The translations under genes and the position numbers were made by a program. Below, piece by piece: positions 3,035 through 41,333 of a DNA stretch of 64,000 nucleotides (positions are counted from its first letter, which is position 1; each line of letters opens with the position of its first letter). The notes beneath the pieces are model-generated. The model saw nothing but the letters and a program-made list of their open reading frames with translations. It searched no databases and was not told the DNA's origin. The stretch is from Escherichia coli. Its GTDB lineage: Bacteria; Pseudomonadota; Gammaproteobacteria; Enterobacterales; Enterobacteriaceae. The stretch lies in NCBI RefSeq assembly GCF_003790525.1, contig NZ_CP033635.1; one strand, written 5' to 3'.

Positions 3035-4495
<1,461 letters not shown>

Positions 4496-11804: not shown

Positions 11805-12872
11805 TTAATTGGTTGCCGGATATTCCTGAATGGTGACCTGCAGCGTTAACTGCTTATCATCACGCATCACTACAACCGGGATCACCGAGCCAGGGCGAAT
11901 TTCCGCCACCTGATCCATCGTCTCCAGAGCAGAGATGGCCGGTTTGTTATCCACCGAAATAATCAAATCATTGACCTGAATACCCGCATTCGCCGCCGGG
12001 CCGTCAGGTGACACTTCATTAACCACGATCCCTTGCAGTTGATCTATACCACCGCCCTGCGCGTGCAGTGGTGCGATCTCACGTCCGCCGATACCAATGT
12101 AGCCGCGGATCACGCGACCATCGCGGATCAGTTTATCCATAATTTTGGTTGCTAACTGGAAAGGAATCGCAAAGCCGATACCTTCCGGCGTTTCGCCATC
12201 GTTACTCTTATCAAACGACAGCGTGTTAATGCCCATCAGTTCGCCCAGCGAGTTCACCAGCGCGCCGCCAGAGTTACCGTGGTTAATGGAAGCATCGGTT
12301 TGCAGGAAGTTTTGCCGCCCGGTCGGGTTCAGACCGATTCGACCCGTGGCACTAATAATCCCCTGGGTAATGGTCTGCCCGAGGTTGTACGGGTTACCGA
12401 TCGCCAGTACCACGTCACCAATGTGCGGTACGCGACGTGCATTAATTGGAATGGTAGGTAAACCGCCAGTGGCATTAATTTTAAGTACCGCCAGATCGGT
12501 TAGAGAGTCAGATCCCACCAGCAATGCTTCAAATACACGTCCATCTTGTAAGGCGACGATGATCTGATCGGCGTCGTTGATGACGTGTTTATTGGTGATG
12601 ATATAACCGCGTTGATCCATGATTACACCGGATCCCAGGGTGCGGATCTCAAGCTGGTTGTGAGAGTTGGTGTTCAAACCACGGTTGTAAACGTTAACCA
12701 CCGCTGGCGCGGCGCGGCGAACCGCCAGATTATAGCTGGCAGGCGTCTCATCGGTACTGTCAAATTGCGGAGTGGAAAGCGGGTTAAGGCTGCGCAGCGA
12801 AGGCATGGCAACCAGCAGAATAGCGCCGACAATTAATCCAATCGCAACGGAACGTAAGAGCTTCACAAACAT
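11805..12872 (-). CDS. degS: Periplasmic serine endoprotease DegS (355 aa)
   Basis: Full ORF; trypsin-like protease plus PDZ domain; recognised as DegS. Confidence 0.95.
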   Translation of the reverse strand: MFVKLLRSVAIGLIVGAILLVAMPSLRSLNPLSTPQFDSTDETPASYNLAVRRAAPAVVNVYNRGLNTNSHNQLEIRTLGSGVIMDQRGYIITNKHVINDADQIIVALQDGRVFEALLVGSDSLTDLAVLKINATGGLPTIPINARRVPHIGDVVLAIGNPYNLGQTITQGIISATGRIGLNPTGRQNFLQTDASINHGNSGGALVNSLGELMGINTLSFDKSNDGETPEGIGFAIPFQLATKIMDKLIRDGRVIRGYIGIGGREIAPLHAQGGGIDQLQGIVVNEVSPDGPAANAGIQVNDLIISVDNKPAISALETMDQVAEIRPGSVIPVVVMRDDKQLTLQVTIQEYPATN

Positions 12873-12961: not shown

Positions 12962-14329
12962 TTAACGCATCAGCAGATAGATGCTTTCATTGCCGCGTAC
13001 AATTTGCAGGGCGATGATGGCCGGTTTTGCCGCCAGCACTTTACGCATTTCAGCAATCGAGTTCACCCGATCGCGGTTGACGCCAATGATCACATCGTCT
13101 TTTTGCAAGCCAGCCTGAGCAGCTGGGCTTCCTTTGACAACCTCATCGATCTTAATACCTTTGCCGCCATCTTTTAGCTGACCATCGCTCAACGTTGCAC
13201 CTTCCAGCGCTGGCGTGATCATTTCAGCGCTGGCCGACGAAGAGGTGCTGGTATCAAGCGTCACTTCTACTTCCAGTGGTTTGCCGTTACGCAGCAGGCC
13301 AAGTTTCACTTTTGTGCCCGGCTCGGTGGTCGCGATACGAGAGCGCAACTCAGCAAAGCTATTCAGCGGTTTGCCGTTGAGGCTGGTAATAATATCGCCC
13401 GCTTTGATGCCCGCTTTTGCCGAGCCAGAACCTGGCAACACTTCGCTGACAAACGCGCCACGCTGCACGTCAAGGTTGAAGGCTTTGGCGATATCGGCAC
13501 TCATCTCTGTGCCTTTGATGCCTAACAGACCGCGTTTGATTTCACCGAAGTCGATAAGCTGCTGCGCCAGTGTTCGCGCCATATTACTGGGGATGGCAAA
13601 TCCAATCCCGACGCTCCCACCGCCAGGCGCAAGGATTGCAGTGTTGATGCCAATTAACTCACCGTTAAGGTTTAACAGTGCACCGCCGGAGTTACCGCGG
13701 TTAATGGAAGCATCTGTCTGGATAAAGTTTTCAAGACCTTCAAGATTCAACCCGCTGCGGCCTAATGCGGAAACAATGCCAGAGGTGGCGGTTTGCCCAA
13801 GGCCAAATGGGTTACCGACCGCCACGGCAAAATCACCGACGCGCAATTTATCGGAGTCGGCAATAGCGATTTGCGTTAATTTGCTCGGGTTTTGAATTTG
13901 CAACAGGGCGATATCGCTCTGGTCATCGCTACCAATCAGTTTTGCATCAAACTCGCGCCCATCATTGAGCTGAATACTGATTTTCTGTGCCTGATTAATC
14001 ACATGGTTGTTGGTCAGCACATAGCCTTTACTGGCGTTGATGATGACACCGGAGCCTAAACCTTCGAAGGGTTGTGCAGGTTGATCCGGTAAATCATCAC
14101 CAAAAAACTTTTTGAATTCTTCCGGGATTTTCTGTCCCTGACTGGCCGTTCCTTCCACCCGTACGCTCACCACTGCCGGAAGCACTTTTTCCAGCATTGG
14201 GGCCAGACTGGGGAGAGGGGCCTGATCGGCAACCTGGCCTGGAATCGACGCAACGGCCTGAAATGACGCCGAGAGAGTTAACCCGACACTTAACGCTAAT
14301 GCACTCAACAGCTGGGTTTGTTTTTTCAT
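12962..14329 (-). CDS. degQ: Periplasmic serine endoprotease DegQ (455 aa)
   Basis: Internal Met (MKKQTQLLSALALS... signal peptide) of track ORF 12962..14371; recognised as DegQ. Confidence 0.94.
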   Translation of the reverse strand: MKKQTQLLSALALSVGLTLSASFQAVASIPGQVADQAPLPSLAPMLEKVLPAVVSVRVEGTASQGQKIPEEFKKFFGDDLPDQPAQPFEGLGSGVIINASKGYVLTNNHVINQAQKISIQLNDGREFDAKLIGSDDQSDIALLQIQNPSKLTQIAIADSDKLRVGDFAVAVGNPFGLGQTATSGIVSALGRSGLNLEGLENFIQTDASINRGNSGGALLNLNGELIGINTAILAPGGGSVGIGFAIPSNMARTLAQQLIDFGEIKRGLLGIKGTEMSADIAKAFNLDVQRGAFVSEVLPGSGSAKAGIKAGDIITSLNGKPLNSFAELRSRIATTEPGTKVKLGLLRNGKPLEVEVTLDTSTSSSASAEMITPALEGATLSDGQLKDGGKGIKIDEVVKGSPAAQAGLQKDDVIIGVNRDRVNSIAEMRKVLAAKPAIIALQIVRGNESIYLLMR

Positions 14330-24725: not shown

Positions 24726-26058
<1,333 letters not shown>

Positions 26059-26204
26059 ACGTATTCGCTCAGGCAGGGGGCGCTGGTTGGGAACTCAACG
26101 TTGGCATGGTTTCGCTGCTCTTGTGTAGATGTGTTGCAGTTATTTGCGACATTCCGCCGGAGTAGCGGAACTATGGAAAACGGCAATTGGCGCTCTTATC
26201 CCTT

Positions 26205-26236
26205 AGCTTTGTAAGGCTTAATTTTGGTAGAATGGG
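26205..26236 (+). promoter_or_regulatory. Candidate sigma70 promoter with extended -10 (TGgTAGAAT) for the AT-rich two-gene module
   Basis: TGGTAGAAT at 26225-26233 seen directly; the -35 is weak (TTGTAA or TTAGCT with non-ideal spacing). Confidence 0.35.
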
Positions 26237-26264
26237 GAATCGTTTAACGGAAAAAAACAATCAG

Positions 26265-26759
26265 ATGATTTCTTTTCTATCCGATGAATTTGAGGAATTT
26301 CCGCAGGGAGATTTTTTAAATCATCTCTATAGGTTTTCGGTAGACCATCATCATTTTATCGTGATATTTAGCCCTATTGATATTAGCGATGCGGAGTACC
26401 ATCAATACCGTAGCGAGGAAGTTGGATTTGAAATCCCAACTAATTGTTTTGATGTGAAATTTGATAGGCAAGAAAACTTTGATAGTGGTAACTTTTACAT
26501 GCCCCCCGCCGCAACTGAATGCTCGAGGCGCAGACGCTTTACTGATGAACTCGCAGAGGCGCTAGCAACGATTATTGAAAAGCATTACATCATTTATCAT
26601 GCCAGGGCTTATCTTGCCATCGCAGAGAATGACAAGTTGAAACGTTACTATGACCGGATTTTACACAATGCCCCGGCTAATGTAGCATATAGAGTAATCA
26701 AAGATGTTGGAGAGGAGGAACGAGGTTATGCCATACAAACCGAATGTTTCCGAACTTAA
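26265..26759 (+). CDS. Hypothetical acidic protein (~164 aa from ATG 26265; alternative starts 26232 or 26187), no recognised domain
   Basis: Single long ORF in an AT-rich (~40% GC by eye) segment; MISFLSDEFEEFPQGDFLNHLYRF...; no motif I recognise; start ambiguous, weak RBS. Confidence 0.6.
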   Translation: MISFLSDEFEEFPQGDFLNHLYRFSVDHHHFIVIFSPIDISDAEYHQYRSEEVGFEIPTNCFDVKFDRQENFDSGNFYMPPAATECSRRRRFTDELAEALATIIEKHYIIYHARAYLAIAENDKLKRYYDRILHNAPANVAYRVIKDVGEEERGYAIQTECFRT

Positions 26760-26874
26760 GAAAATGACTGTTGCAGAGCGCAAGAAAGAAGCCATGCGCC
26801 AGCTTAAAGCATCCTTTGAGCGCGCCAGCATTGAAGGGACTTTGCATAAACGCTCTGCAAAGTCTGTTGCGTAA
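26728..26874 (+). CDS. Hypothetical small basic protein (48 aa), overlaps the 3' end of the preceding ORF by 32 nt in another frame
   Basis: Strong RBS GAGGAGG 7-13 nt upstream of ATG 26728; MPYKPNVSELKKMTVAERKKEAMRQLKASFERASIEGTLHKRSAKSVA; below the ORF-track length cutoff, found by reading. Confidence 0.5.
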   Translation: MPYKPNVSELKKMTVAERKKEAMRQLKASFERASIEGTLHKRSAKSVA

Positions 26875-26888
26875 TGAAAGATTTCAAT

Positions 26889-26914
26889 AACCCGCTGCGG
26901 CGGGCCTTTTTTTG
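26889..26914. terminator. Rho-independent terminator 15 nt after the small ORF (possibly bidirectional, facing the convergent VWA gene)
   Basis: cccgctgcggcgggcctttttttg: GC stem plus T7 run. Confidence 0.75.
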
Positions 26915-27095
26915 CCCTCAGAAAATCCCCTCTGACCTGCCTCAGGGATTATATACAACCTTCAGTTAATTAGCTGCGCACCATACGCGGCCCGAGCCTT
27001 ATCGCCTTGTTCAAATTCGACAATTCGTCGGCCAATTTCCCCGAACGTCGCGGTGCTAAGTACCGTATCCGTCCGGGCGTATCCGGCCAGAATTT

Positions 27096-28265
27096 TCAGG
27101 CGGTTTCTCTTGCTGTCACTACGCCATTTTGCGCAGCCCACAGATTCACATCTTCCTTACGAATGGCGGCGGCCATCATGCCGGGGAATAAATCTGGGGT
27201 ACAGGCAAAGGAGGGAATACCCATGGCGGCGAGTTTTCCTGCCAGTGACCGGTCGTAAAACGGCGCACCTTCATCGCTTAAGGCCAGCAGGGTAACCACC
27301 TGTACGCCGGACTGAATCAACTCACTGGCGCGTTGCAACAGATTGCGTTCCACCCCGCCTTCGTAGAGGTCGGAAATCAGCACCAGAATGGTATTGCGCG
27401 GATCGCGAATCAAAGACTGGCAGTAGCCCACCGCGCGGTTGATGTCGGTGCCGCCACCCAGCTGTACGCCAAACAGCAGCTCTACCGGATCGTCGAGCTT
27501 CTCTGTCATATCAACGACTGCGGTGTCGAAAACCACCAGATGCGTTTTTACCGCCGGGAGCGATGCCATTACTGCGCCAAAAATACTGGAATAGACCACC
27601 GAGGAGGCCATCGACCCACTCTGGTCGATACATAAAATGATCTCCTTTTGCGTGCGTTGAGACTTGCGCCCGTAGCCGATCAGCGTTTCAGGAACAATAC
27701 TTTTATACTCTTCCTGCCAGTGGCGCAGGTTGGCGCGAATGGTGCGCTGCCAGTCAATTTCCGCGTGGCGCGGGCGACGATTACGTACCGCACGATTAAG
27801 AGCGCCGCTTACCGCGCTACGCATTGGCTCTTCAAGCTGTTTCATCAATTGCTCGACAACTTTACGCACCACAAGCCTGGCGGTTTCTTTGGTTTTGGCC
27901 GGAATTACGCCATTCAGCGACATCAGCGTGGAGACCAGATGAACATCAGGCTGGACGTTTGCCAGCATCTCCGGCTCCAGCAACATACTGTGCAAATTAA
28001 GACGTTCAAAGGCGTCTTTTTGCATCACCTGAACCACAGAAGAAGGGAAATACTGGCGAATATCACCCAGCCAGCGAGCGACTTTGGGTGACGATCCACC
28101 CGTGCCGCCGCGTAATCCATGTTTACCCTCTGGCTGATACAGCGCCGCCAGCGCGGCATCAATCGCGGACTCTCTGGCATCCAGCGCCACGTTACAGGCA
28201 TTGTCGGCATCTTCTCCAAGGATCAGACGCCAGCGGCGCAGCCGTTCCATTTCGTTACTCGACAT
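27096..28265 (-). CDS. von Willebrand factor A (VWA) domain protein with complete MIDAS motif (389 aa); fifth gene of novel operon
   Basis: DQSGSM (DxSxS), GGGTD and LISDLYEGG motifs seen in the translation; start overlaps the upstream gene's stop by 11 nt. Confidence 0.85.
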   Translation of the reverse strand: MSSNEMERLRRWRLILGEDADNACNVALDARESAIDAALAALYQPEGKHGLRGGTGGSSPKVARWLGDIRQYFPSSVVQVMQKDAFERLNLHSMLLEPEMLANVQPDVHLVSTLMSLNGVIPAKTKETARLVVRKVVEQLMKQLEEPMRSAVSGALNRAVRNRRPRHAEIDWQRTIRANLRHWQEEYKSIVPETLIGYGRKSQRTQKEIILCIDQSGSMASSVVYSSIFGAVMASLPAVKTHLVVFDTAVVDMTEKLDDPVELLFGVQLGGGTDINRAVGYCQSLIRDPRNTILVLISDLYEGGVERNLLQRASELIQSGVQVVTLLALSDEGAPFYDRSLAGKLAAMGIPSFACTPDLFPGMMAAAIRKEDVNLWAAQNGVVTARETA

Positions 28266-30504
28266 GATTTTCCCTTTCGTGTGGTGGCAAAGCCAGAATG
28301 CGGCGCAGTAGCGGCAGCATTAACGCGGCACGCTGTTCATCCCATATACCGCTGGTCTCTTCTTGCTGCGCGACACGCTCGCCCTGCGCGGCGCGTTCGC
28401 CTAACTGGCGGCGTTCCGGGCTGGAAAAACGGCCGAATGTCCGCCGCAGCATCGGCAGGATCCGGGTGAAGTGATTGTCGTTCAGGCCGCTTAGCCAGGC
28501 ATCGATCAACTGCCATAATTCGCTATTGTGCAGTAGCACCATCGCGCTGTCGTTGAGGAAACCTTCCGCCCATGCGGCACTTTCCGCCGGGGGATTGGCT
28601 GGCGATAGCGCCAGGTTCATCAGCGTGCTGATCCGTTCTGTCGTTAACGTTTGCAGATCAAACAACAGGCGCGTCGCCGTTCCGCGAAGCAGCGCGTGTG
28701 CGGTACTGCCCTCTGCCAGCACCATCAACGCCTGCAACCAGCCCGCCAATAGATCTTCGTTATCCAGCAACCGCAGCGCGGCGTGGGCGTCGATAACTTT
28801 TTCTCTCATACTGGCGGCGCTGTCGTCGTTGAGCGCCGAACAGGCTCCGGGTAGGGCGATGGCGGCGCGCGGGGCGAGGCTCATCAGTACCTGCATTACC
28901 ATACCAGAGTCGGTCTGGCGCACGTTGCCGTAGCGGACAATCGCCACCAGTGGTGCCAGGGCTTCCAGCAACTGTTCGATATTGCCCTGAGTGGCAGCCA
29001 GTGATTCCAGTGTATTGGCGATGGGGGCAATCGCGGTCTGTAAATCGGCCAGTAGCACCTGTTGGATAAGCTTTGCCAGTTCCGGCAGCGTGCTGGCGTA
29101 TTGCGCCCTCACAATGGCATAGCGGGAGCTGGCCTGCTCAATGCTGTTACCCCAACGGCTGGCGGTAATGATGTTGATTGCCAGTGCCGGTTCCCAGCGC
29201 AGCGACCAGACTTCGTGGAACGTCCCTTTGCTGTTATTTCCTTGTCCAGCCAGACGGCCCCAGGAAATGTCGAGTAAGGTCAGGCGATGCAGTAAATGGC
29301 TACGCGCCAGATCGCCGGGTTTGCGCAGATCAAGATCCAGCACTTTTTCGCTGGCTTCTGCCTTCAGGCGCAGCGTTTTTTGCTGTTGCGTAATGTCGCG
29401 TTGGAGCGGCACGACGGGCGTATCATCCGGTACGCTTCCCAGCGCGTCGCCGACAATTAACTTCTGGCGAATCATCTGCATTGGCGCGCTTTCGCCCATA
29501 CACACTACGGTTTGCAGCGCTTCGCAAAGTTCGTCAAGCCCCGGCTGCGGGTGATGGCGCATAATCGCCAGCGTCTGCGCCAGCCGCGCCGCTTCGATAA
29601 TGTGGGCGCTGGAACAGTCGAGATCGGCTTCGCGAAACAGCCTTGCCGCGCGTGACAGCCAGCCGATATCGCGGTGAGAAGCGCCCTGATAACGCCACAG
29701 ATGATCGTACCATTCCGGTGACACCACCCCTGCGCCATAACCGCTGGCGCGGCTTAACGCCTCGTAGCTCCAGGGCGTCCAGGCTGCCGCGACCTTGCAC
29801 TTCGGCAAATTTTTCAGCAGTTCGTTATCATTCTTTGCGGGCGGCAGGTTTTCCAGCGCCGGAACGTGCCACGCACCGCAGACTACCGCGATGCGCGAGA
29901 AGCCCTCTTTTTTCGCCTGACGTAGCGTCTTGCGCATATACGCTTCACGCAGTTGATCTCTGGCTGAGTTTCGGGCTTCGGGAGTTGCCTGGCGTAGGGC
30001 AATCATCGCCTCGCGAATCGCCTCGAACAGAGACAAATCATCTTCGCGTTCCTCTACTCTGTGGCTCCACCAGCTTTCCCCATCGGTGTAACCGGCGGCG
30101 CGGCCCAGCCAGTCCAGCGGATCGCCGTCGGGACTGGCTTCAACGGCATCATCGTCATCGCTCTCTTTTTCGTCATCAAGCGCGAACTGATGACTGATGG
30201 GCAAGTCCATAAAGCGCACGGCGATATTTTGCTCAAAACCATAGCGCAGCGCCTGCCATTCCGGGGAGAACGCCGCAAAGGGGTAAAACGCGGCGTGATG
30301 TGAGTCGTCCGGGGCATAAATCAGTAGCGCGACCGGCGGTTGCATCTGTTCATGCTGCATAAAAGGCAGGATGGATTCGCCGTCGGGCGGCCCTTCCACC
30401 AGCAGGCAGTCGGGCTGTAGCGTCTCCAGCGCCTTTCGCAGGCTGCGCGCGCAGCCAGGGCCATGGTGACGGATGCCAAACAAATGAACGGTTTGTTCAG
30501 TCAT
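28255..30504 (-). CDS. Large hypothetical protein (749 aa), no motif recognised; fourth gene of novel operon
   Basis: Uninterrupted 2.25-kb ORF; AAGG RBS in the 17-nt gap after the AAA+ gene; acidic stretch DDEKESDDDDAVEASPDGD; helical Leu/Ala-rich C-terminal half. Confidence 0.8.
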   Translation of the reverse strand: MTEQTVHLFGIRHHGPGCARSLRKALETLQPDCLLVEGPPDGESILPFMQHEQMQPPVALLIYAPDDSHHAAFYPFAAFSPEWQALRYGFEQNIAVRFMDLPISHQFALDDEKESDDDDAVEASPDGDPLDWLGRAAGYTDGESWWSHRVEEREDDLSLFEAIREAMIALRQATPEARNSARDQLREAYMRKTLRQAKKEGFSRIAVVCGAWHVPALENLPPAKNDNELLKNLPKCKVAAAWTPWSYEALSRASGYGAGVVSPEWYDHLWRYQGASHRDIGWLSRAARLFREADLDCSSAHIIEAARLAQTLAIMRHHPQPGLDELCEALQTVVCMGESAPMQMIRQKLIVGDALGSVPDDTPVVPLQRDITQQQKTLRLKAEASEKVLDLDLRKPGDLARSHLLHRLTLLDISWGRLAGQGNNSKGTFHEVWSLRWEPALAINIITASRWGNSIEQASSRYAIVRAQYASTLPELAKLIQQVLLADLQTAIAPIANTLESLAATQGNIEQLLEALAPLVAIVRYGNVRQTDSGMVMQVLMSLAPRAAIALPGACSALNDDSAASMREKVIDAHAALRLLDNEDLLAGWLQALMVLAEGSTAHALLRGTATRLLFDLQTLTTERISTLMNLALSPANPPAESAAWAEGFLNDSAMVLLHNSELWQLIDAWLSGLNDNHFTRILPMLRRTFGRFSSPERRQLGERAAQGERVAQQEETSGIWDEQRAALMLPLLRRILALPPHERENHVE

Positions 30505-30521
30505 AGTGGTTGCCTTGCTGA

Positions 30522-31616
30522 TTACACAATTTCGCGGCAGGCGCGATAGAGATCGTTCCAGTCGCTGCGCTCTTTGACTATAGTTTCCAGATATTCACGC
30601 CATACCACGTCGTCCTGCACGGGATCTTTTACCACCGCGCCGATAAGGCTTGCGGCGATATCCCGCGGATGTAGCACGCCGTCGCCAAAATGGCCCGCCA
30701 GCGCCATACCGTTGTTGATAACGGAGATCGCCTCCGCGGTGCTGAGAGTACTGGTTGGCGACTTAATTTTCGTTTTGCCGTCAACCGTCAGGCCGTTTCG
30801 CAGTTCGCGGAAGATTTGCACGACTCGCTGGATCTCTTTAAGCGCTGGCGGTTCGGCAGGAAGTGCCAGCGCCTGACCCAGTTCGGCGACGCGGCGAGTG
30901 ACAATGTTAATCTCTTCTTCTTCGCTGGCGGGTACGGGCAAAATGACCGTGTTGAAACGACGTTTAAGTGCGGAAGAAAGCTCGTTAACGCCTTTATCCC
31001 GGTTGTTGGCGGTGGCGATAACGTTAAAGCCGCGCGTCGCCTGGACCTCTTCATTCAGTTCGGGGATAGGCAGCGTTTTTTCCGACAGGATCGTGATCAG
31101 CGTGTCCTGAACATCGGCAGGAATACGCGTCAGCTCTTCTACGCGGGCAATCTGCCCGCGTGCCATCGCCCGCATCAATGGGCTTTCTACCAGCGCCGAA
31201 CGTGACGGACCTTTAGAGAGCAACTCCGCGTAGTTCCAGCCATAACGCATTTGTTCTTCACCGGTGCCTGCGGTGCCCTGAATAATTAACGTTGAGTCGC
31301 CGCTGATGGCAGCCGCCAGATGTTCAGAGACCCAGGATTTCGCAGTGCCGGGTACGCCATACAACAGCAGTGCGCGATCGGTTGCCAGCGTGGCAACGGC
31401 GGTTTCGATAATCCGCCTGTTGCCGATATATTTCGGCGTGACCTCAAAACCATTTTCCAGTTGCCCGCCTAACAGATAAGTAGCAACGGACCACGGAGAA
31501 ATAGCCCAGTTTTCCGGGCGCGGATGAGTATCGTTTTTTTGCAGCTCATCCAGTTCTTCTGCAAATTGTTGTTCGGCATGTCGGCGTAAAACGGCGGCAG
31601 TAGCGGTGGAAGTCAT
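30522..31616 (-). CDS. MoxR-like AAA+ ATPase (364 aa from ATG 31616); third gene of novel operon
   Basis: Walker A LLLYGVPGTAKS (GxPGxAKS, MoxR-type), Walker B-like IARVEELTRIPADVQ, sensor-1 NVIATANN, Arg finger LKRRF; ATG overlaps the upstream stop as ATGA. Confidence 0.85.
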   Translation of the reverse strand: MTSTATAAVLRRHAEQQFAEELDELQKNDTHPRPENWAISPWSVATYLLGGQLENGFEVTPKYIGNRRIIETAVATLATDRALLLYGVPGTAKSWVSEHLAAAISGDSTLIIQGTAGTGEEQMRYGWNYAELLSKGPSRSALVESPLMRAMARGQIARVEELTRIPADVQDTLITILSEKTLPIPELNEEVQATRGFNVIATANNRDKGVNELSSALKRRFNTVILPVPASEEEEINIVTRRVAELGQALALPAEPPALKEIQRVVQIFRELRNGLTVDGKTKIKSPTSTLSTAEAISVINNGMALAGHFGDGVLHPRDIAASLIGAVVKDPVQDDVVWREYLETIVKERSDWNDLYRACREIV

Positions 31617-33217
31617 AAAGTAGTTTCTCCGACAAAAAACGAATGAAGTTGAATTCGGTGCGCCAGCGTGGCGCTCAGGGCAGTAAAGGCTGCCTCGCAA
31701 TAAGGCGTTTGTTGTGCGTCATGCGGCCACTTGTCAATGACATCATTGAGGACTTCGGGGGCCAGCAGGCAGGCGAAATCACTCATCACATGGCGCAGGG
31801 CGTAGTCAAAGCGCGCGGAATCATGTTTCACCCAACGGTGCAGCTCCGTGACCATTTGCTGGCTCAGGCGCAGGCTAAAGAGCGACGCATCCAGCGGTAA
31901 CAGGGCGATGTAGCGTTGTAAATGTTCGCCGCCCATTACCGAGAACAGTAACGTCAACACTGGCTCGTGTTCTTCTACGGGCAGGCATTGCAGAAGCTCA
32001 AAGGCGTTAATCTTCACGCCAGCAGGGGAATGAATGCTTATTCCGACGGGGAGTAGGGCGAGGAATGCCTGCGCCCACTGTGGATTTTTTTCGCGCAGGA
32101 CGGCGTGATACCAGGCGCGCAGTAGCGCCTCCTGCCAGTCGGTTTTCCCGGCCCAGCGCAGCAGTTCAACGGGGGTAGCCTGCAGTTGCGTTTGCCACCA
32201 GTCGAGCGGAACCGCTGCAACTATCTGATACAGCCACCATGCGCGCTGGCCCAACTTTTCGCCTTTGGGCTTAGTTTCTTCCAGCGCATCGGCCTTCCAC
32301 TCTGGTAAGAACGCCTCCGGGGCATCAAGGGCGACGCGCAGCATTTTTTCTTTGCCGGATAAGCCTTTTAGCCTTTCAAGTAAGGTCTCAGGAGCGGGGG
32401 ATGAACTGAGCAACGGCGCTAACCGAGACTTCATGCGCGAGATCCAGGCGCTTTCCGGCAGACAACACAGTAACCGTGCCGCAGTTTGCCGCACCTCTTT
32501 GCTGCGATCGGATAATGTCTGTTCCAGAAAGGCTTCGTCGTGTTGGGAGATCCCCACTTCCAGCACAGCCAGCAGCTGTGCGCGTTCGCGGGCATCCAGC
32601 GAACTCATCTCCTGCGCCAGCCGATCGCGACCCTGTTCCGGGGCGCGAATGCGCATTTGCGTCAGATATTGCAGACGCTGTTCGGACGTGCCGTGCAGCC
32701 ACATTTCTTCATCCAGCGGAGCGTCAGTGGAGGCGAGAACATAGCCCCAATCGGCGTTGATTTGCGCCAGCCAGCACCCGCGAGCGCCCAGAACATTGGA
32801 CAGGATGCCGCGTAGAGATGGCTTTTGCGCTCCATAATTCAGCAATGCTGGTAACAGCAGGGGCGGAGGAAGAAGTTGACGACGGACCAATAGATCAAGC
32901 GCCGACCACAGCAACCGCGGCGGTCCTTCTGACAGCAGCAGATGCAGCAGTCCCGCAAAAGCCGGGTTGTTTATTGGCTCGGCATTTTCTTTATCGATTT
33001 CCGGCAGCGGTGCGGGGTCAATCGCCTGCGGCACCCAGCCAGCCAGATGGCAGAGCGCCAGAACGCCCGCCGAGCGCAGTAGCTGTTGCTCTGCGGATGT
33101 GTTATTCGCCAGTTCAGACAGTAACAGCCCAATCTCACTTTGCGACGCCGACGGTGTAAACGCTTTTTTGTCTGTGCCGAGTAGCGCTGTGCGGGTTAAA
33201 TTTTGCCATTCGTTCAT
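31613..33217 (-). CDS. Hypothetical alpha-helical Leu-rich protein (534 aa from ATG 33217; 541 aa if 33238); second gene of novel operon
   Basis: Long ORF; ATG at 33217 forms an ATGA overlap with the SWIM gene stop; Leu/Ala/Trp-rich repeat-like sequence; no catalytic motif recognised. Confidence 0.8.
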   Translation of the reverse strand: MNEWQNLTRTALLGTDKKAFTPSASQSEIGLLLSELANNTSAEQQLLRSAGVLALCHLAGWVPQAIDPAPLPEIDKENAEPINNPAFAGLLHLLLSEGPPRLLWSALDLLVRRQLLPPPLLLPALLNYGAQKPSLRGILSNVLGARGCWLAQINADWGYVLASTDAPLDEEMWLHGTSEQRLQYLTQMRIRAPEQGRDRLAQEMSSLDARERAQLLAVLEVGISQHDEAFLEQTLSDRSKEVRQTAARLLCCLPESAWISRMKSRLAPLLSSSPAPETLLERLKGLSGKEKMLRVALDAPEAFLPEWKADALEETKPKGEKLGQRAWWLYQIVAAVPLDWWQTQLQATPVELLRWAGKTDWQEALLRAWYHAVLREKNPQWAQAFLALLPVGISIHSPAGVKINAFELLQCLPVEEHEPVLTLLFSVMGGEHLQRYIALLPLDASLFSLRLSQQMVTELHRWVKHDSARFDYALRHVMSDFACLLAPEVLNDVIDKWPHDAQQTPYCEAAFTALSATLAHRIQLHSFFVGETTL

Positions 33218-34536
33218 TGTGCGCCTCCGGTTGCCCAAATGACGCTACCGGCAAGCCAGGCGCTACAGGGCGTCAGCTGCTGACCATCCCATTCCCCCAT
33301 TAGCATAAACGGCGCGCCGCCGCTGGCCGCCAGTAACCGCCAACCCTCGTCCGACGACAGGTGCGTCGGTAAGTGCTGGCCCTGTGTCGAGACGAATCGC
33401 CAGCCGCTCTCGTGCGGGTAAATCAATATTTCGCTTACTCGCAGCGGCAGAGGCCATTGCCAGGGATTCGCGCTAAGCCGCTGCGCCATGTCATGCAGCG
33501 CGTCCGGGAGGGGTAATTCTGCAAGCGGGAATCTTTCACCGCGGGTAAACGGCTCCACAACCCGCGCCCGTAGCGGTGATGCGCCAGGGAAAAAGGCAAG
33601 CGCGCCCTGGCAGACTTGCCCGGTGATAAAGTGCTGGGGAAAGTTTTTACTACCGTGTGAATAGTCCAGCAGTAGCGCGGTGCGGTGGCTCTTTTCTCCG
33701 TACAGCCAGACCCGGCGTCGCCACAGATTATTCCCTTCTTGCGCGCTTTGACCTAAGACCTGCCAGTTATCGAGGCAGGTTAATCCGTCAGTGACGTCGT
33801 GTTTATCCGGGGGTATTCCCAATGCCGCATGGAGATCGCTAAGTTGTGCCGGGGATAACATTTGTTGCTGGCGCCAGGCGTCAATAATCAGCTGTAGCTG
33901 CCCCAGTTCTTTGCACAGGCTCGATGGCCATACCTCGGCGGTAGTAAAATGAGTGGTCAGATTGTTCAGGCGAGCGGCAATTCCCGGTAGTTGGGCGTCG
34001 ACCATGCGGGCGGCGATCCCGGCAAAAGGCAACTGTTGTGCAGAGATCTGCGCCAGACCGTGGCGGATCAGGTCGTGCATCCACTGTTCGAGGAAATCCA
34101 GCCCCGCCGTCATTTTTTGGTTGCGTGCCGCTTCCCGTTTGGCGGCAGCCTGCGGGTCGGCAGCTTTTGCCTCAGCCTGCTCTTTCTTCTCTTCTTTGCG
34201 AACCGCCCGCTGCTGGCGCGAGGTTAGCCACTCGCTTACCCATTCCGGCGGCTCGCCAGCGGTGAAACTTGCGGTGTGTTGCACCTGGAGAAAAAGCAAC
34301 GCAAGGCTATGTTTACAGGGGAATTTACGGCTGGGGCAGGAACATTTACAGGCCAGATCCTGTCTGTCGATTCGTACCTGATAAGGGCGGGAGCCGCTAC
34401 CTTTACACTCTCCCCAGAAGGCAGCCTCGCTATATCCGAGCGTCGGCCATTTTGCGGGAGCAACCAGGCCACGAGCCGCTTTAACCGAGGCGTCATCGGG
34501 CGCCAGGGCTTGCACTGATTCAACGGTCAGTTCCAT
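33214..34536 (-). CDS. SWIM zinc-finger domain protein (440 aa); first gene of novel operon
   Basis: CxCxnCxH signature at residues 63-76 (ACKCSCPSRKFPCKHSLALLF); first ORF downstream of gltD on the same strand. Confidence 0.85.
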   Translation of the reverse strand: MELTVESVQALAPDDASVKAARGLVAPAKWPTLGYSEAAFWGECKGSGSRPYQVRIDRQDLACKCSCPSRKFPCKHSLALLFLQVQHTASFTAGEPPEWVSEWLTSRQQRAVRKEEKKEQAEAKAADPQAAAKREAARNQKMTAGLDFLEQWMHDLIRHGLAQISAQQLPFAGIAARMVDAQLPGIAARLNNLTTHFTTAEVWPSSLCKELGQLQLIIDAWRQQQMLSPAQLSDLHAALGIPPDKHDVTDGLTCLDNWQVLGQSAQEGNNLWRRRVWLYGEKSHRTALLLDYSHGSKNFPQHFITGQVCQGALAFFPGASPLRARVVEPFTRGERFPLAELPLPDALHDMAQRLSANPWQWPLPLRVSEILIYPHESGWRFVSTQGQHLPTHLSSDEGWRLLAASGGAPFMLMGEWDGQQLTPCSAWLAGSVIWATGGAQ

Positions 34537-34649
34537 TACAATTCTCTATTGGCGTGGGGAAATCGATGGGGTCAAGGAGGCGTTAAGCAAAGCAGGAGGA
34601 GACTGTTTTCCGTAACAGCGTATTGCGCGTCCATCGCAAATTTGTAGTG

Positions 34650-34679
34650 AGTATAGCGGGCGGTAAATTCAGGAAACAA
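34650..34679 (-). promoter_or_regulatory. Candidate sigma70 promoter for the five-gene operon (-35 TTGTTT, 18-bp spacer, -10 TATACT on minus strand)
   Basis: Hexamers read on the reverse complement ~115-140 nt upstream of the SWIM start codon; heuristic only. Confidence 0.3.
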
Positions 34680-34721
34680 TGGCGGATAGCGGAAAGTGTA
34701 GTTTTTCGGAAAAAGATAACT

Positions 34722-34760
34722 TTATCCCGTGTAACCCGTTTTAAGCGGGCTACACGGGAG
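34722..34760 (-). terminator. Hairpin downstream of gltD (candidate terminator or attenuator)
   Basis: Inverted repeat cccgtgtaacccg / cgggctacacggg 10-45 nt after the gltD stop; the trailing U-tract on the minus strand is interrupted. Confidence 0.4.
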
Positions 34761-34768
34761 GCTGCAAT

Positions 34769-36199
<1,431 letters not shown>

Positions 36200-39100
36200 T
36201 TACTGCGCCTGCACGCGCAACTCTGCTGCGCTACGACTACGGTGACCCAGCAGTGCTTTTACATCACTGGACTTCGGTTTAACCAGCGCGAATTTCGTGG
36301 CGAAGGTTGACCAGTTCGCCAGAATCTCTTCACCGCGCTGGGAACCGGTATGCTGCACATGCTCGGTGATAAGACCACGCAGATGCTCTTCATGGATCGC
36401 CAAATCGTCAACGCTTAAGACCTCGACCAGTTCCGGGTTAACGCGTTTGCGGAAATCGCCGCTTTCATCGAGAACGTAAGCGAAGCCACCGGTCATGCCC
36501 GCGCCGAAGTTAACGCCGGTTTTACCCAGAATACAGACAATACCGCCCGTCATATATTCACAGCCGTTGTCGCCAATGCCTTCTACCACGGTGATAGCAC
36601 CGGAGTTACGTACGCCGAAACGTTCACCCGCGCGGCCTGCGGCATACAGACGACCTCCGGTCGCGCCATACAGGCAGGTGTTGCCGATAATGCTTGCTTC
36701 ATGGCTGCGGAAGGCTGAGCCAACCGGAGGACGAATGGCAATTAAGCCGCCCGCCATGCCTTTACCGACATAGTCGTTAGCATCGCCGGTCAGATACAGT
36801 TCCACGCCGCCCGCGTTCCACACACCGAAGCTCTGGCCTGCGGTGCCGTTGAAGTATGCTTTGATCGGATCGGCAGCCAGCCCCTGATCGCCGTGCGTCT
36901 GGGCGATATAGCCTGAAAGCGACGCGCCGACAGAACGATCGGTGTTGCGGATATCGAACCAGAAGGTTTTGCTCTGGCGTTCATCGACAAACGGTTTTGC
37001 CTGTTGCAGCAACTGCGCGTTCAGTAGGCCGTTATCAAACGGCGGGTTGTTTTCGGTGCAGTAGAGTGCCTTACCTGCATTTGGCTCGGCAGTTTCCAGC
37101 AGCTTCGACAGCGCCAGTTTCTGCTGTTTGGCGGTGAAACCGTCCAGCTCTTTCAGCAGGTCGGTGCGACCAATCAGATCCACCAGACGCGTTACCCCCA
37201 GCTGTGCCATCAGCTCGCGGGTTTCACGGGCGATAAACTCAAAGTAATTAGTCACTTTGAACGGCAGGCCGTGATAGTGATTCTTACGCAGTTTGTCATC
37301 CTGAGTTGCTACACCCGTGGCGCAGTTGTTCAGGTGGCAAATTCGCAGATATTTACAGCCAAGCGCTACCATCGGGCCAGTGCCGAAGCCGAAGCTTTCT
37401 GCGCCGAGAATCGCCGCTTTGATGATATCAACGCCGGTTTTCAGGCCGCCATCAACCTGCAAACGGATCTTGTGACGCAAGCCGTTGGCAACCAGCGCCT
37501 GTTGGGTTTCAACAAGCCCCAGCTCCCACGGACAGCCTGCGTATTTCACCGATGAAAGCGGACTTGCGCCGGTGCCGCCGTCATAGCCTGCGATGGTGAT
37601 TAAATCGGCATAAGCTTTTGCCACGCCAGTCGCGATGGTGCCTACGCCCGGTTCGGAAACCAGCTTCACGGAGATCATCGCTTTTGGATTGACCTGCTTG
37701 AGGTCGAAAATCAGCTGCGCTAAATCCTCAATAGAGTAGATATCGTGGTGCGGCGGCGGGGAGATCAGCGTCACGCCCGGCACCGAATAGCGCAGTTTGG
37801 CAATGTAAGGAGTGACTTTATCACCCGGTAACTGACCACCTTCACCCGGCTTCGCGCCCTGGGCGACTTTTATCTGAATGACGTCGGCATTGACCAGGTA
37901 CGCCGGAGTAACGCCGAAGCGACCGGACGCCACCTGCTTGATGCGCGACACTTTGTTAGTGCCATAGCGCGCCGGGTCTTCACCGCCTTCGCCGGAGTTT
38001 GAGTTACCGCCGATGCTGTTCATCGCTTCCGCCAGCGCCTCGTGGGCTTCCGGGCTTAACGCGCCGATAGACATCGCGGCGGTATCGAAGCGTTTAAACA
38101 GTTCGCTTGCCGGTTCAACATCGGCAATGTTGACTGCGTTTTCACCCGGCGTAATTGCCAGCAGATCGCGCAGCGTGGTTGCCGGACGCTCATTAACCAG
38201 CTTCGCGTATTCCTGATAGTCGCTATACTCGCCGCTCTGTACCGCCTGTTGCAGCGTGCGCACCACGTCCGGGTTGTAGGCGTGGTATTCGCCGCCGTGC
38301 ACGTATTTCAGCAGGCCGCCCTGGCTGATGGGCTTACGCGCCAGCCAGGCACGTTTCGACAGATTCAGCAGATCCTGCTGGAAGTCTTCAAAGCTAGCCC
38401 CCCCAATGCGGCTAACCGCCCCCTGGAAGCACAGGCCCACGACATCATCGTGCAGACCGACCGCTTCAAACAGTTTCGAGCAGCGGTAAGAGGCGATGGT
38501 GGAGATGCCCATTTTGGACATGATTTTGTACAAGCCTTTGTTGATGCCGTTACGATAGTTGAGCATCACGGTACGATAATCTTTGGCAATCGCGTGGGTG
38601 TCTACCAGACGGCCCAGCGTTTCATAGGCAAGGTACGGATAAATAGCCGTCGCGCCGAAACCCAGCAACACGGCGAAGTGGTGCGGATCACGGGCGCTGG
38701 CGGTTTCGACGATGATGTTGGCATCGCAACGCAGGCTTTGATCGACCAGACGGGTCTGGATCGCGCCAACCGCCATCGGAGCCGGAACCGGCAGGCGATC
38801 TTTAGCGATATTCCGGTCGGAGAGCACCAGCAGTACGGTGCCGCTACGTACCATTTTTTCGGCTTTGTCGCACAGTTCTTTCACCGTCGCTTCGAGCGTG
38901 GTTTTAGTGACGTCAAAGGTGATATCCAGCGTATCTGCGCGGTAGTGATCCTCTTTCATCGTCGTGAGCTGTTTGAAATCGGAATAGAGCAGAATCGGCG
39001 ATTTAAAGCTTAAACGGTGCGCCTGGCCTTCTGCTTCGCAGAAGACGTTCATTTCGCGGCCAATGCTGGTGGCGAGCGACATAACATGCGCTTCACGCAG

Positions 39101-40753
39101 CGGGTCGATTGGCGGGTTAGTCACCTGGGCAAATTGCTGGCGGAAGTAGTCGTAAATAATGCGCGGCTGACTGGAGAGCACGGCGAATGGGGTGTCGTCG
39201 CCCATCGAACCGACCGCTTCCTGACCGTTTTCACCCAGTACGCGGATCACCGAATCCAGCTCTTCCGCGCTGTAGTTAAATTGTTTCTGGTAGCTGGCAA
39301 GCGTGTCGTCGTCCAGTTCGCGGCTACCCACTTCTTCATCGGGCAGATCTTCAAACGGTACCAGACGGCGGACGTTTTTCTCCATCCACTCTTTATAAGG
39401 GTGGCGGCTTTTCAGATCGTCATCGGTTTCTGCCGAGTGCAGAATACGCCCACTGCGGGTGTCGATCACCATCAGTTCGCCTGGCCCCACGCGGCCTTTT
39501 TCGACCACTTCGTCAGGCTGATAATCCCAGATACCGACTTCAGAGGCGCAGGTAATGAGCTTATCTTTGGTGATGACATAGCGTGCCGGACGCAGACCGT
39601 TACGGTCGAGGTTACAGGCGGCAAAACGACCGTCAGACATCACGATGCCTGCCGGGCCATCCCACGGCTCCATATGCATGGAGTTAAAGTCAAAGAAGGC
39701 ACGCAGTTCCGGGTCCATATCCGGGTTGTTCTGCCAGGCGGGTGGCACTAACAGACGCATGGCGCGGATGATATCCATCCCGCCTGCCAGCAGCAGTTCC
39801 AGCATGTTATCCATGGAACTGGAGTCAGAGCCGGTTTCGTTGACGAACGGCGCGGCGTCGTGCAGGTCAGGGATCAGCGGCGTCTGGAATTTATAGGTAC
39901 GCGCACGCGCCCATTGGCGGTTACCAGTGATGGTGTTGATTTCACCGTTATGCGCGAGGTAGCGGAACGGCTGTGCCAGCGGCCAGCGCGGTACGGTGTT
40001 AGTGGAAAAGCGCTGGTGGAACAGGCAAATGGCCGATTCCAGACGCAGGTCCGCAAGATCCAGATAAAAGCGCGGCAGATCCGCCGGCATACACAGACCT
40101 TTATAGATGTTCACCAGATTCGACAGGCTACAGACGTAGAAGTCTTTGTCGGCTTCGAGACGCTTTTCAATGCGGCGGCGGGCGATAAACAGACGGCGCT
40201 CCATATCGCGTGGACGCCAGCCTGCCGGGGCGTTCACAAAAATTTGCTCAATGCGTGGCAGAGAGGAGAGGGCGATTTCACCCAGCACGCCTTCGTTAGT
40301 GGGGACATCACGCCAGCCCACAATCGACAATGTTTCGCGTTGCAGCTCTTCTTCAACGATGCGGCGTGCGGCAGCGGCGAGTTCAGGATCTTTATTCAGG
40401 AAGAGCATCCCGACAGCGTAGTTTTTTGCTAAACGCCAGCCGCGCTCCTGCGCAACGATGCGAAAAAAGCGATCCGGTTTTTGTAACAGCAAGCCGCAAC
40501 CGTCACCGGTTTTACCATCGGCGAGAATCGCGCCACGGTGCTGCATGCGGGCCAGTGCGTGTATTGCAGTACGCACTACCTTGTGGCTAGGTTCGCCTTC
40601 TATGTGGGCGATCAGGCCGAAACCACAGTTATCCCTCTCAAGGGATTTATCGTACAACATATCGTGAACCTCCCCCAGGCTCTGCGGGAACCCCACTTCC
40701 GAACCGCTGCGCACGGGCACAGAAAGAGCGTGGCGACGGGGTTTGCGTGTCAT
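36200..40753 (-). CDS. gltB: Glutamate synthase large subunit GltB (1517 aa including propeptide; mature N-terminal Cys after ...LERDN)
   Basis: 4.5-kb ORF; MTRKPRRHALSVPV... then CGFGLIAHIEG amidotransferase N-terminus; the track ORF starts 5 codons upstream; an alternative start at MLYDK (40660) is possible. Confidence 0.95.
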   Translation of the reverse strand: MTRKPRRHALSVPVRSGSEVGFPQSLGEVHDMLYDKSLERDNCGFGLIAHIEGEPSHKVVRTAIHALARMQHRGAILADGKTGDGCGLLLQKPDRFFRIVAQERGWRLAKNYAVGMLFLNKDPELAAAARRIVEEELQRETLSIVGWRDVPTNEGVLGEIALSSLPRIEQIFVNAPAGWRPRDMERRLFIARRRIEKRLEADKDFYVCSLSNLVNIYKGLCMPADLPRFYLDLADLRLESAICLFHQRFSTNTVPRWPLAQPFRYLAHNGEINTITGNRQWARARTYKFQTPLIPDLHDAAPFVNETGSDSSSMDNMLELLLAGGMDIIRAMRLLVPPAWQNNPDMDPELRAFFDFNSMHMEPWDGPAGIVMSDGRFAACNLDRNGLRPARYVITKDKLITCASEVGIWDYQPDEVVEKGRVGPGELMVIDTRSGRILHSAETDDDLKSRHPYKEWMEKNVRRLVPFEDLPDEEVGSRELDDDTLASYQKQFNYSAEELDSVIRVLGENGQEAVGSMGDDTPFAVLSSQPRIIYDYFRQQFAQVTNPPIDPLREAHVMSLATSIGREMNVFCEAEGQAHRLSFKSPILLYSDFKQLTTMKEDHYRADTLDITFDVTKTTLEATVKELCDKAEKMVRSGTVLLVLSDRNIAKDRLPVPAPMAVGAIQTRLVDQSLRCDANIIVETASARDPHHFAVLLGFGATAIYPYLAYETLGRLVDTHAIAKDYRTVMLNYRNGINKGLYKIMSKMGISTIASYRCSKLFEAVGLHDDVVGLCFQGAVSRIGGASFEDFQQDLLNLSKRAWLARKPISQGGLLKYVHGGEYHAYNPDVVRTLQQAVQSGEYSDYQEYAKLVNERPATTLRDLLAITPGENAVNIADVEPASELFKRFDTAAMSIGALSPEAHEALAEAMNSIGGNSNSGEGGEDPARYGTNKVSRIKQVASGRFGVTPAYLVNADVIQIKVAQGAKPGEGGQLPGDKVTPYIAKLRYSVPGVTLISPPPHHDIYSIEDLAQLIFDLKQVNPKAMISVKLVSEPGVGTIATGVAKAYADLITIAGYDGGTGASPLSSVKYAGCPWELGLVETQQALVANGLRHKIRLQVDGGLKTGVDIIKAAILGAESFGFGTGPMVALGCKYLRICHLNNCATGVATQDDKLRKNHYHGLPFKVTNYFEFIARETRELMAQLGVTRLVDLIGRTDLLKELDGFTAKQQKLALSKLLETAEPNAGKALYCTENNPPFDNGLLNAQLLQQAKPFVDERQSKTFWFDIRNTDRSVGASLSGYIAQTHGDQGLAADPIKAYFNGTAGQSFGVWNAGGVELYLTGDANDYVGKGMAGGLIAIRPPVGSAFRSHEASIIGNTCLYGATGGRLYAAGRAGERFGVRNSGAITVVEGIGDNGCEYMTGGIVCILGKTGVNFGAGMTGGFAYVLDESGDFRKRVNPELVEVLSVDDLAIHEEHLRGLITEHVQHTGSQRGEEILANWSTFATKFALVKPKSSDVKALLGHRSRSAAELRVQAQ

Positions 40754-41333
40754 ACGCGCACCTCGCATTCGCCCCCTTGTTGTCCTTTTCGCATCGGTTA
40801 ATACGGTGAAGAGGGGATCTCAATTACTGCATAAATATGATGAGCAGGCTGCTCATCCAGAAAGCTTCCAGCGGATTTCCAACTTATCGGGAAAGCTGAT
40901 ACAGGTCAAATGGCAAGCTTATTGGTACAGAAATGTGCTTTAGCGCAAAATTCTTTATTAATTGTCTGAAATTAAAGTGGATTTTCTATTTAAGGCTAAA
41001 AGGGCGTCGTTAGAGAAACAGTCAATTCCTGACTGTCATAAAGGCGTGTTAACCCTTATCCTGCCTTGAACTGACGAGAAAACCAGCATTTTATACTGCC
41101 TTAATTGGTAATAACGTTTCATGCTACTGTTTTTGCCTAAAATCCATAAGGAGATAAAAAAATCTGACACAAGATAAGCAAAAGTGATTTATGTGATTGT
41201 GCATGAAATTTCGGTAATTTTGATTGATTATGCAGTTGATAAAAGCAGGCCGGGACGATTGATCCAGGTCATCGCCGAATTGAGCTAAAAATGGCAGGCT
41301 TTGGCCTCTTTTCAAGGCGCGGTCTATCAGATT
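40754..41333. promoter_or_regulatory. AT-rich divergent control region between gltB and yhcC (gltBD promoter region)
   Basis: ~580-bp AT-rich intergenic region upstream of gltB; individual binding sites not resolved. Confidence 0.4.

Follow-up and report, generated by a model that had tools for sequence, protein, structure and literature searches.

The gltD-proximal spacer of a rare five-gene operon in Escherichia coli: a candidate cassette-specific control region at a replacement site

In a 64,000-nucleotide stretch of Escherichia coli DNA (contig NZ_CP033635.1; the whole stretch is referred to here as the window), the gltBD genes are followed in the same orientation by a five-gene operon whose first gene encodes a SWIM zinc-finger protein. 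The two are separated by a spacer of 232 bp at positions 34537–34768, and the region round this spacer is 100% identical to E. coli SMS-3-5. The SWIM-DUF5691-MoxR-DUF5682-VWA operon is rare and uncharacterised, and its location raises the question of what the spacer is: ordinary intergenic sequence downstream of gltD, the scar of a mobile element, or a control region that belongs to the operon. An earlier note made from the sequence alone had pointed to a terminator-like hairpin and a promoter-like element in the spacer. The reading favoured here, with a probability of roughly 0.6, is that 34537–34768 is a cassette-specific control region of the operon, and that a site between nanQ and gltD can be filled in several alternative ways, of which the operon is one.

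The spacer begins exactly where gltD ends. In a sample of 5,426 complete E. coli genomes, a 501-bp junction probe has a match in 5,404 and matches over its whole length in 33; in the 5,371 others, every sampled match begins at probe position 370, which corresponds to position 34769, at which the gltD stop codon ends. The exact right breakpoint is this TAA codon (34769–34771, minus strand), as given by the probe matches and by an alignment of four locus types that diverge immediately past it. On the left, comparison of the window with AR_0058 and K-12 places the breakpoint at the nanQ stop codon plus one nucleotide (26056–26059, plus strand), since identity to both strains stops one base past that codon. 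Two convergent core genes delimit the variable segment, which extends from the stop codon of one to that of the other. At blastn sensitivity, no genome other than the 33 that carry the operon has the spacer, and each of these has one copy (32 identical, one with a single-nucleotide polymorphism); the spacer has no similarity to the nanQ–gltD interval of K-12. A diverged gltD–gltF intergenic region, the ordinary origin that the earlier note had considered as an alternative, is ruled out by this dissimilarity and by the restriction of the spacer to operon carriers.

Elsewhere in the species, the same two conserved genes enclose unrelated contents, with homology breaking at their edges (34769 and 26059). 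The site is empty in 947 genomes; in AR_0058, which has this state, the nanQ–gltD gap is 67 bp and contains one hairpin common to both genes. In K-12 the site holds yhcG-yhcF-yhcE-yhcD-yhcA-gltF, a fimbrial cluster plus yhcG, and yhcG is carried by approximately 4,186 genomes. The operon carriers themselves fall into several arrangements: N96, two MFDS strains and 2017-02-2CC have an intact yhcG and then the operon, 18KM2445 has a transposase-annotated gene, a truncated yhcG and the operon, and 28 of the 33, the window included, have a separate left module, a short yhcG remnant and the operon. Replacement hotspots bounded by core genes have been described for E. coli pan-genomes; they include integration hotspots and the "defence-island" type, lack mobility genes and are exchanged through homologous recombination of their flanks. 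The nanQ–gltD site resembles them in its mutually exclusive contents (empty, fimbrial cluster or operon), in breakpoints at conserved-gene edges without integrase, tRNA or repeats, and in the diversity of the flanking gltD. It differs in that the cassette contains no recognised defence system, and in that most hotspot cargo is younger, whereas the operon cassette is syntenic across species and genera. No paper naming a gltD/yhcG (nanQ–gltD) hotspot was found in the literature. The gltD gene diverges by 3.7% between the window and K-12, 4.7% between N96 and K-12 and 3.9% between the window and N96, with mismatches very dense in its last 70 nt; the usual divergence of E. coli core genes is 1–2%. 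Recombination at a hotspot edge would fit such unusual diversity.

The K-12 arrangement has a symmetry of its own. On either side of the gltF-yhc-yhcG block stands a copy of one hairpin, the two having diverged: attctgcagacactgtctgcagaat adjoins nanQ and attcgccagacacagtctggcgaat adjoins gltD, and empty-site strains have a single copy (coordinates 3618–3650 and 11958–11990 in locus L002, K-12/TG1, and 11960–11990 in locus L003). The pair has the look of a bidirectional terminator that was duplicated, or of the footprint of an old insertion.

A mobile element, the second possible origin, is not indicated by the sequence at this locus. No tRNA or transfer-messenger RNA gene lies in 20000–42000, no integrase, recombinase or transposase domain was detected with Pfam or NCBIfam in any open reading frame (ORF) of 26.06–34.77 kb, no direct or inverted repeats of at least 8 nt are common to the boundaries, and no target-site duplications or terminal repeats occur at the outer, operon or left-module boundaries. 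The segment is single-copy and in E. coli always lies at the nanQ–gltD locus. The integrase and the tRNA target with attachment (att) repeats that characterise integrative islands and prophages are both missing, as are, in the window, the transposase, terminal inverted repeats, target duplication and multiple copies expected of an insertion sequence (IS) or transposon. The earlier claim that neither junction bears mobility signatures therefore holds, and breakpoint analysis revealed no att sites, target duplications or IS ends. A recently inserted integrative island or transposon that has since lost its integrase, att sites or IS ends is very improbable. Such an element could be suspected from the 101-amino-acid transposase-annotated gene located between nanQ and the truncated yhcG of 18KM2445 (L005 3452–3757), but that gene has no Pfam or NCBIfam match and is not found in other carriers. 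Plasmid-borne relatives of the 0.9-kb left module, and the location of the operon on different sides of yhcG in two genera, would also fit a mobile origin; on the other hand, the G+C content (55–61%) is similar to that of the flanks, the divergence among E. coli carriers is 2–2.7%, and in cryptic Escherichia the operon has diverged as much as the flanking genes.

The relatives of the operon give this last comparison its weight. Relatives of the SWIM protein with 90% and 68% identity are encoded on contigs with gltB-gltD upstream and nanQ-nanK-nanE downstream. The 90% type (locus L007) is from an unclassified or cryptic-clade Escherichia, as judged from exact matches of flanking proteins, and aligns collinearly with 17.6 kb of the window (92.65% identity); gene by gene, the operon is 89.8–95.4% identical, and gltB, gltD and the nan genes are 92.7–93.9% identical. 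The 68% type is from Klebsiella huaxiensis and a related Klebsiella sp., in which the operon shares 74.6% identity with that of the window, the nan genes 73.8% and gltBD 85%. In K. huaxiensis and Klebsiella sp. RHBSTW-00215, decayed yhcG fragments are found between gltD and the SWIM gene (L008 9382–9719; L014 2265–2702), and the spacer between these two genes is 784–978 bp long. Among E. coli carriers, the operon has diverged by up to 2.7% and adjoins gltD alleles that differ by approximately 4%. Because its divergence tracks that of the flanks and several lineages carry it, the evidence argues for a long-resident operon exchanged through its flanks, not a recent insertion. The earlier note had preferred flank recombination or an old island to a recent insertion, and the occurrence of the operon at the same site in cryptic Escherichia, with flank-like divergence, in K. 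huaxiensis and beside different gltD alleles supports that preference. Relatives of the operon at about 55% identity lie at other loci and have unrelated DNA upstream.

The SWIM-proximal part of the spacer (34537–34659, minus strand), which comprises a promoter-proximal segment and a predicted 5′ leader of approximately 107 nt, is conserved and travels with the operon. Local alignment to K. huaxiensis shows that Escherichia–Klebsiella homology starts at CCG-N-TATACTC and runs for 123 nt to the ATG (window 34659–34538). Within it, a 39-nt core, GYTGTTAYGGAAAACAGYCTCYTYCTSCTTTG..TAACGCC, is nearly invariant between the two genera, and 34582–34644 has no variation in any Escherichia haplotype. 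Against cryptic Escherichia, 34537–34659 has one difference in 123 positions, compared with approximately 7% elsewhere; the full spacer has five differences from L007 in 232 nt against a regional average of 7.1% (binomial P = 8e-4), while two intergenic regions taken as controls reach 92.4% and 88.4% identity. Within the E. coli carriers the spacer has zero to one difference, and mismatches lie close together up to 34459 and then again from 34790 on. At least four operon lineages of E. coli share an unaltered 330-nt stretch, and on either side of it their flanks differ densely. This stretch also has the lowest non-coding divergence in the comparison with the cryptic clade. Judged by these alignments, the spacer is slower-evolving than the adjacent genes. 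The conservation continues into the coding sequence: in SWIM codons 1–20 (34477–34536), E. coli and Klebsiella differ by one amino-acid change and no synonymous change, and about one third of the later SWIM codons have a synonymous change. The N-terminus MExTVESV is kept also in a 53%-identity relative (L011). A search of metagenomes with the leader core added one more copy from cryptic Escherichia; its two other matches were due to chance.

Low divergence of this kind could instead result from recent recombination patches or a sweep, in which case the spacer, apart from the hairpin, would be ordinary filler. The window–L007 alignment is indeed a mosaic, with seven identical runs of 149–213 nt that are mostly coding, and the gltD alleles beside the operon, which differ by about 4% between carriers, show that recombination does occur at the junction. 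Since the alignment with the cryptic clade is patchy, run length alone proves little. The 330-nt stretch shared by at least four lineages with densely differing flanks and its rank as the least diverged non-coding stretch are nevertheless harder to explain in this way, as are the 123 nt that can be aligned to Klebsiella, with their near-invariant 39-nt core, at an operon divergence of 25%. Recombination patches or a sweep thus make an improbable explanation for the low divergence, and a conserved control region is preferred.

The promoter-like element lies at the upstream edge of the conserved segment. Its candidate −35 hexamer, TTGTTT (34674–34679, minus strand), matches the consensus at 3/6 positions and its candidate −10 hexamer, TATACT (34650–34655, minus strand), at 5/6, with an 18-nt spacer between them. 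The total of 8/12 is below the threshold of the promoter scan, which called no sites in 34300–35000. As a sigma-70 promoter, the element has a −10 box near TATAAT, at 5/6, but a −35 box that departs from TTGACA, at the upper end of the usual 16–18 nt, and the match as a whole does not exceed chance. The SWIM ATG (34536) lies 113 nt beyond the end of the −10 box, close to the approximately 115 nt given in the earlier note. TTGTTT is invariant in the Escherichia haplotypes; TATACT is invariant in all Escherichia and Klebsiella sequences and sits exactly at the upstream edge of their homology. The promoter call stands on the conservation of this predicted −10 box, not on motif strength. Of the earlier promoter claim, the element itself and its −10 box survive, while the motif is at chance level and the −35 box is not conserved in Klebsiella.

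On the gltD side of the spacer, a stem-loop occupies 34725–34759 (minus strand), 10–44 nt after the gltD stop codon, with 14 bp and a 7-nt loop. Its minimum free energy is −27 kcal/mol (z −4.0 to −4.7), and none of 200 shuffled sequences folds as well, which bears out the hairpin that the earlier note had placed 10–45 nt after gltD. The arms are complementary at 15/17 positions as DNA, and the sole imperfection as RNA is one G·U pair. The only variant of the hairpin among five Escherichia haplotypes turns this kind of pair into a G–C pair, at 34734. The earlier label of terminator-like fits in part. Like intrinsic terminators, the structure is a stable, GC-rich stem-loop shortly past a stop codon; unlike them, it has no U-rich tract (at least five U in 8 nt) 3′ of the stem, which is followed directly by AUAAAGUUAUCUUUUU, the tail reading AUAAAGUU AUCUUUUU. 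Having AUAAAGUU in place of a U run, it fails the consensus terminator scan, and it is not a canonical intrinsic terminator.

Each locus type has its own stable hairpin, unrelated in sequence to the others, 9–16 nt after gltD. The native hairpin of K-12 and empty-site strains (AATTCGCCAGAC...GTCTGGCGAATT) is a AATTCGCCAGAC palindrome, with folded segments of −24.5 and −30.3 kcal/mol, and the gltD-proximal hairpin of Klebsiella is a third sequence, of −27.3 kcal/mol. The native and window hairpins have in common their start 9–16 nt after the gltD stop, energies of −24 to −30 kcal/mol, the lack of a strong U-tract and a presumed role at the 3′ end of gltBD. They differ in having no sequence similarity, and in that the native hairpin of empty-site strains also serves the convergent nanQ. 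Retention of position and stability despite different sequences suggests a function needed at the gltBD 3′ end. Because no hairpin of any locus type has a U-tract, the comparison suggests that they protect the 3′ end, or terminate partially with the help of a factor, instead of acting as classical terminators. A 13-nt palindrome, TTTTTCGGAAAAA, can be read from the sequence at 34702–34714, between the hairpin and the −35 box. It is broken in cryptic-clade haplotypes by T>A at 34712, and TTCCGAAAA also aligns in Klebsiella, where local alignment gives no support for homology; the palindrome is probably not essential.

Taken together, these features are consistent with the following arrangement. 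The hairpin would end or protect the gltBD transcript and partly insulate the operon from it. The operon would be transcribed from its own weak sigma-70 promoter, with a poor −35 box, TATACT as −10 box and a start near 34643, and this promoter would probably need an activator or specific conditions. The leader of approximately 107 nt and the first 60 nt or so of the SWIM gene may restrain or regulate expression at the nucleic-acid level, by means of a weak Shine-Dalgarno sequence, a start codon within a small hairpin and hairpins with GGA loops. The cassette itself would be an old resident, spread or replaced via homologous recombination in gltD and in nanQ or yhcG, and most E. coli would have lost it or swapped it for another.

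Several observations weigh against this arrangement. The hairpin lacks a U-tract, so that read-through from gltBD is possible and termination is a prediction only. An equal or better promoter match is held by 33% of shuffled spacers, the motif alone thus not exceeding chance, and the −35 box is not conserved, Klebsiella having TTACCG in its place. The folding energy of the leader is ordinary (z = 0.56 and −0.37), and its covariation, described below, rests on a single Escherichia–Klebsiella contrast. With seven identical runs of at least 149 nt in the 17.6-kb window–L007 alignment, patchy recombination could explain part of the spacer conservation. As to the history of the cassette, the yhcG remnant of Klebsiella lies between gltD and the operon, and the yhcG of Escherichia between the operon and nanQ. 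A single, vertically inherited ancestral insertion does not explain both orders, which speak for a rearrangement or for two distinct placements. Two scans of 100,044 species-representative genomes also found no relative; these scans used exact patterns from the window sequence (peptide words and a start-codon DNA pattern) and are informative on close relatives only. The operon type of E. coli and Klebsiella is rare.

The first two of these points are what would be expected if the operon had no promoter of its own. The five genes would then be a 3′ extension of the gltBD transcript, the hairpin a leaky attenuator or an RNA-processing or stabilising site, TATACT fortuitous, and the conserved leader active post-transcriptionally only. 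An extension of this kind is reported for gltF in the gltBDF operon of K-12. The operon is co-oriented with gltBD at a distance of 232 nt, the promoter motif is no better than chance, the hairpin, lacking a U-tract, escaped the terminator scan, and the native gltD hairpins have no good U-tracts either. What makes read-through, the main rival, an unlikely alternative is the −10 hexamer, which is invariant in two genera exactly where Escherichia–Klebsiella homology starts, and the layout in Klebsiella, in which a gap of 784–978 bp with a decayed yhcG separates the operon from gltD; co-transcription with gltBD is therefore no conserved requirement. Transcription from a promoter within the spacer is preferred for these reasons.

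How the leader might act can be approached through its predicted structure. Within the most conserved core, RNAalifold predicts a small hairpin, CTGTTACGGAAAACAG (34603–34618, minus strand; helix 3), with 5–6 bp and a GGA-containing loop, which is retained through G–C/G·U changes. A 6-bp hairpin that includes the SWIM start codon is predicted at 34521–34538 (minus strand; helix 5), and a weak Shine-Dalgarno sequence, GAGAA, precedes the SWIM gene. A long-range helix between 34631–34637 and 34552–34557 has two compensatory pairs, and slid controls have none. The approximately 180 nt from the −10 box through SWIM codon 20 (about 34477–34659) are tentatively, and with considerable doubt, put forward as a previously undescribed cis-regulatory leader. 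It could be a structured 5′ untranslated region, or a platform for binding of a protein or small RNA, that silences the MoxR-VWA-SWIM machine until a signal arrives. Consistent with this proposal are the near-invariance in E. coli lineages and the lack of synonymous change relative to Klebsiella, the helix with two compensatory pairs, the GGA-loop hairpins and the start codon within a small hairpin.

Other candidates for the content of the leader were rejected. An exceptional thermodynamic structure is unsupported at the z-scores given above, and no Rfam family matches the spacer, the best scores (18.7 and 14.6 bits against thresholds of 56.8 and 94.9) both lying outside it. A LexA core, CTGT-N8-ACAG, is present at 34603–34618; there are two such cores in the 64-kb window against 0.63 expected, and at least two occur in 16% of shuffles. 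As a LexA/SOS box it was rejected: under a position weight matrix of 27 known E. coli sites, these sites, scored leave-one-out, reach 11.6–27.4 bits, the 20-mer 4.4 bits and its Klebsiella counterpart about 0. Small ORFs of 35 amino acids on the minus strand and 32, 49 and 21 amino acids on the plus strand have no Shine-Dalgarno sequence and no conserved start and were not accepted as genes. The frame of the minus-strand ORF is disrupted by a 1-nt indel in Klebsiella, and the 16 variable sites show no third-codon-position bias that would indicate coding.

At its other end, the cassette stops short of where the earlier note had placed the island. The 8.7-kb segment at 26.06–34.77 kb is composite: it contains a yhcG remnant, which the earlier note had missed, and a separate two-gene module in addition to the operon, and on the left the operon itself ends at approximately 27.07–27.09 kb, not at 26.06–26.2 kb. 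A truncated operon terminator at 27074–27095 (minus strand) forms the left edge of the operon cassette, as seen by comparison with N96 and L007 (window 27074–27095 against L004 3985–4022 and L007 17455–17560). Both of these have the complete terminator, GGCCGGATGCGCCCGCTCCGGCCTTTTT, the distal half of which is absent from the window, and homology to N96-type genomes begins at query position 1015, equivalent to 27074. In N96, the left edge of the cassette is approximately 130 nt upstream of the yhcG start, just past the operon's own terminator. The terminator reads GGCCGGATGCGCCCGCTCCGGCC and then TTTTT in N96 and cryptic Escherichia, and half of it is deleted in the window. Relative to L007, approximately 51 nt are missing there, which fuses the 3′ end of the VWA gene to the yhcG fragment.

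The yhcG remnant (26965–27090, minus strand) lies directly downstream of the VWA gene. It is a 126-bp internal piece of this DUF1016/PDDEXK nuclease gene (approximately amino acids 22–68), identified from tblastn and from a pseudogene annotation of the Prokaryotic Genome Annotation Pipeline (PGAP), and it matches the yhcG of approximately 4,186 genomes at 80–91% DNA identity. Other carriers retain different portions of the gene: amino acids 19–102 in cryptic Escherichia, 1–105 in 18KM2445 and the whole gene in N96. The left module (26060–26964, plus strand) spans 0.9 kb and comprises a 190-amino-acid ORF (26187–26759), a 48-amino-acid ORF (26728–26874) and an intrinsic terminator (26891–26913). 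It is present in 28 of the 33 operon genomes only, is not found in L007, has a low G+C content of 39–47%, and retains 99.7–100% identity even in cases of an operon identity of 97.9%. The 190-amino-acid protein has relatives of 45–55% identity on Yersinia, Serratia and Klebsiella plasmids. It has no family assignment, and a phage origin was rejected, there being no phage match.

The operon that the spacer precedes consists of genes for a 440-amino-acid SWIM zinc-finger protein (33214–34536; Pfam SWIM and PGAP annotation), a DUF5691 protein (31613/31634–33238), an AAA_5/MoxR-type ATPase (30522–31616), a DUF5682 protein (28255–30504) and a VWA_CoxE protein (27096–28265), all on the minus strand; the ends of genes 2–5 (27096–33238) overlap or abut. 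Upstream on the same strand are gltD (34769–36187) and gltB (longest ORF 36200–40768, annotated as 36200–40660), and on the far side nanQ ends at 26058, convergent with gltD. In the carriers EC17CM2 and e1-39, the island is matched in two pieces with 97% coverage and the ATPase gene is annotated differently, which suggests an internal operon deletion of approximately 300 bp.

The operon combines the same families, namely MoxR ATPase, DUF5682, VWA and SWIM, as the uncharacterised yehL-yehM-yehP-yehQ of K-12. Its ATPase is 41% identical to YehL, its DUF5682 protein 27% to YehM and its VWA_CoxE protein 38% to YehP, and by sequence similarity these three proteins are paralogues of their K-12 counterparts. 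AAA_5/MoxR, DUF5682, VWA_CoxE and SWIM thus occur together in one operon, as in yehLMPQ, but neither the gene order nor an orthologous SWIM protein is shared: the window operon starts with SWIM and DUF5691, whereas yeh has SWIM last, and the two SWIM proteins cannot be aligned outside the zinc finger. YehQ has no DUF5691 match, and in the window operon DUF5691 is encoded by a gene of its own; the two clusters also differ in chromosomal locus and in the sequence upstream. No operon protein has a significant match in PADLOC-DB 2.0, the only marginal one being IetA for the ATPase (E 0.001–0.003), and among the four window proteins scanned against NCBIfam (SWIM, DUF5691, DUF5682 and the 190-amino-acid ORF) none has a match. 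In the literature, no paper mentioning DUF5682 or DUF5691 and nothing useful on yehLMPQ were found.

The junction itself is ordinary biology, and it represents no new type of mobile element or mechanism. What it offers is a precisely mapped swap site, where at least five alternative cassettes lie stop codon to stop codon between two convergent core genes. One of these cassettes is an old, rare MoxR-VWA-SWIM operon, paralogous to yehLMPQ, that has a transcript-end hairpin, a candidate promoter and a conserved leader of its own. The exact breakpoints and the natural empty-site strains ease the design of gain and loss constructs, and the conserved leader provides a handle on when the operon is switched on.

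A 53%-identity relative of the operon (L011) has a different locus, beside helD, mgsA and a gene for an StcE-like protease. In it, a rhomboid-family gene (13265–13876) is inserted between the DUF5682 and VWA genes.

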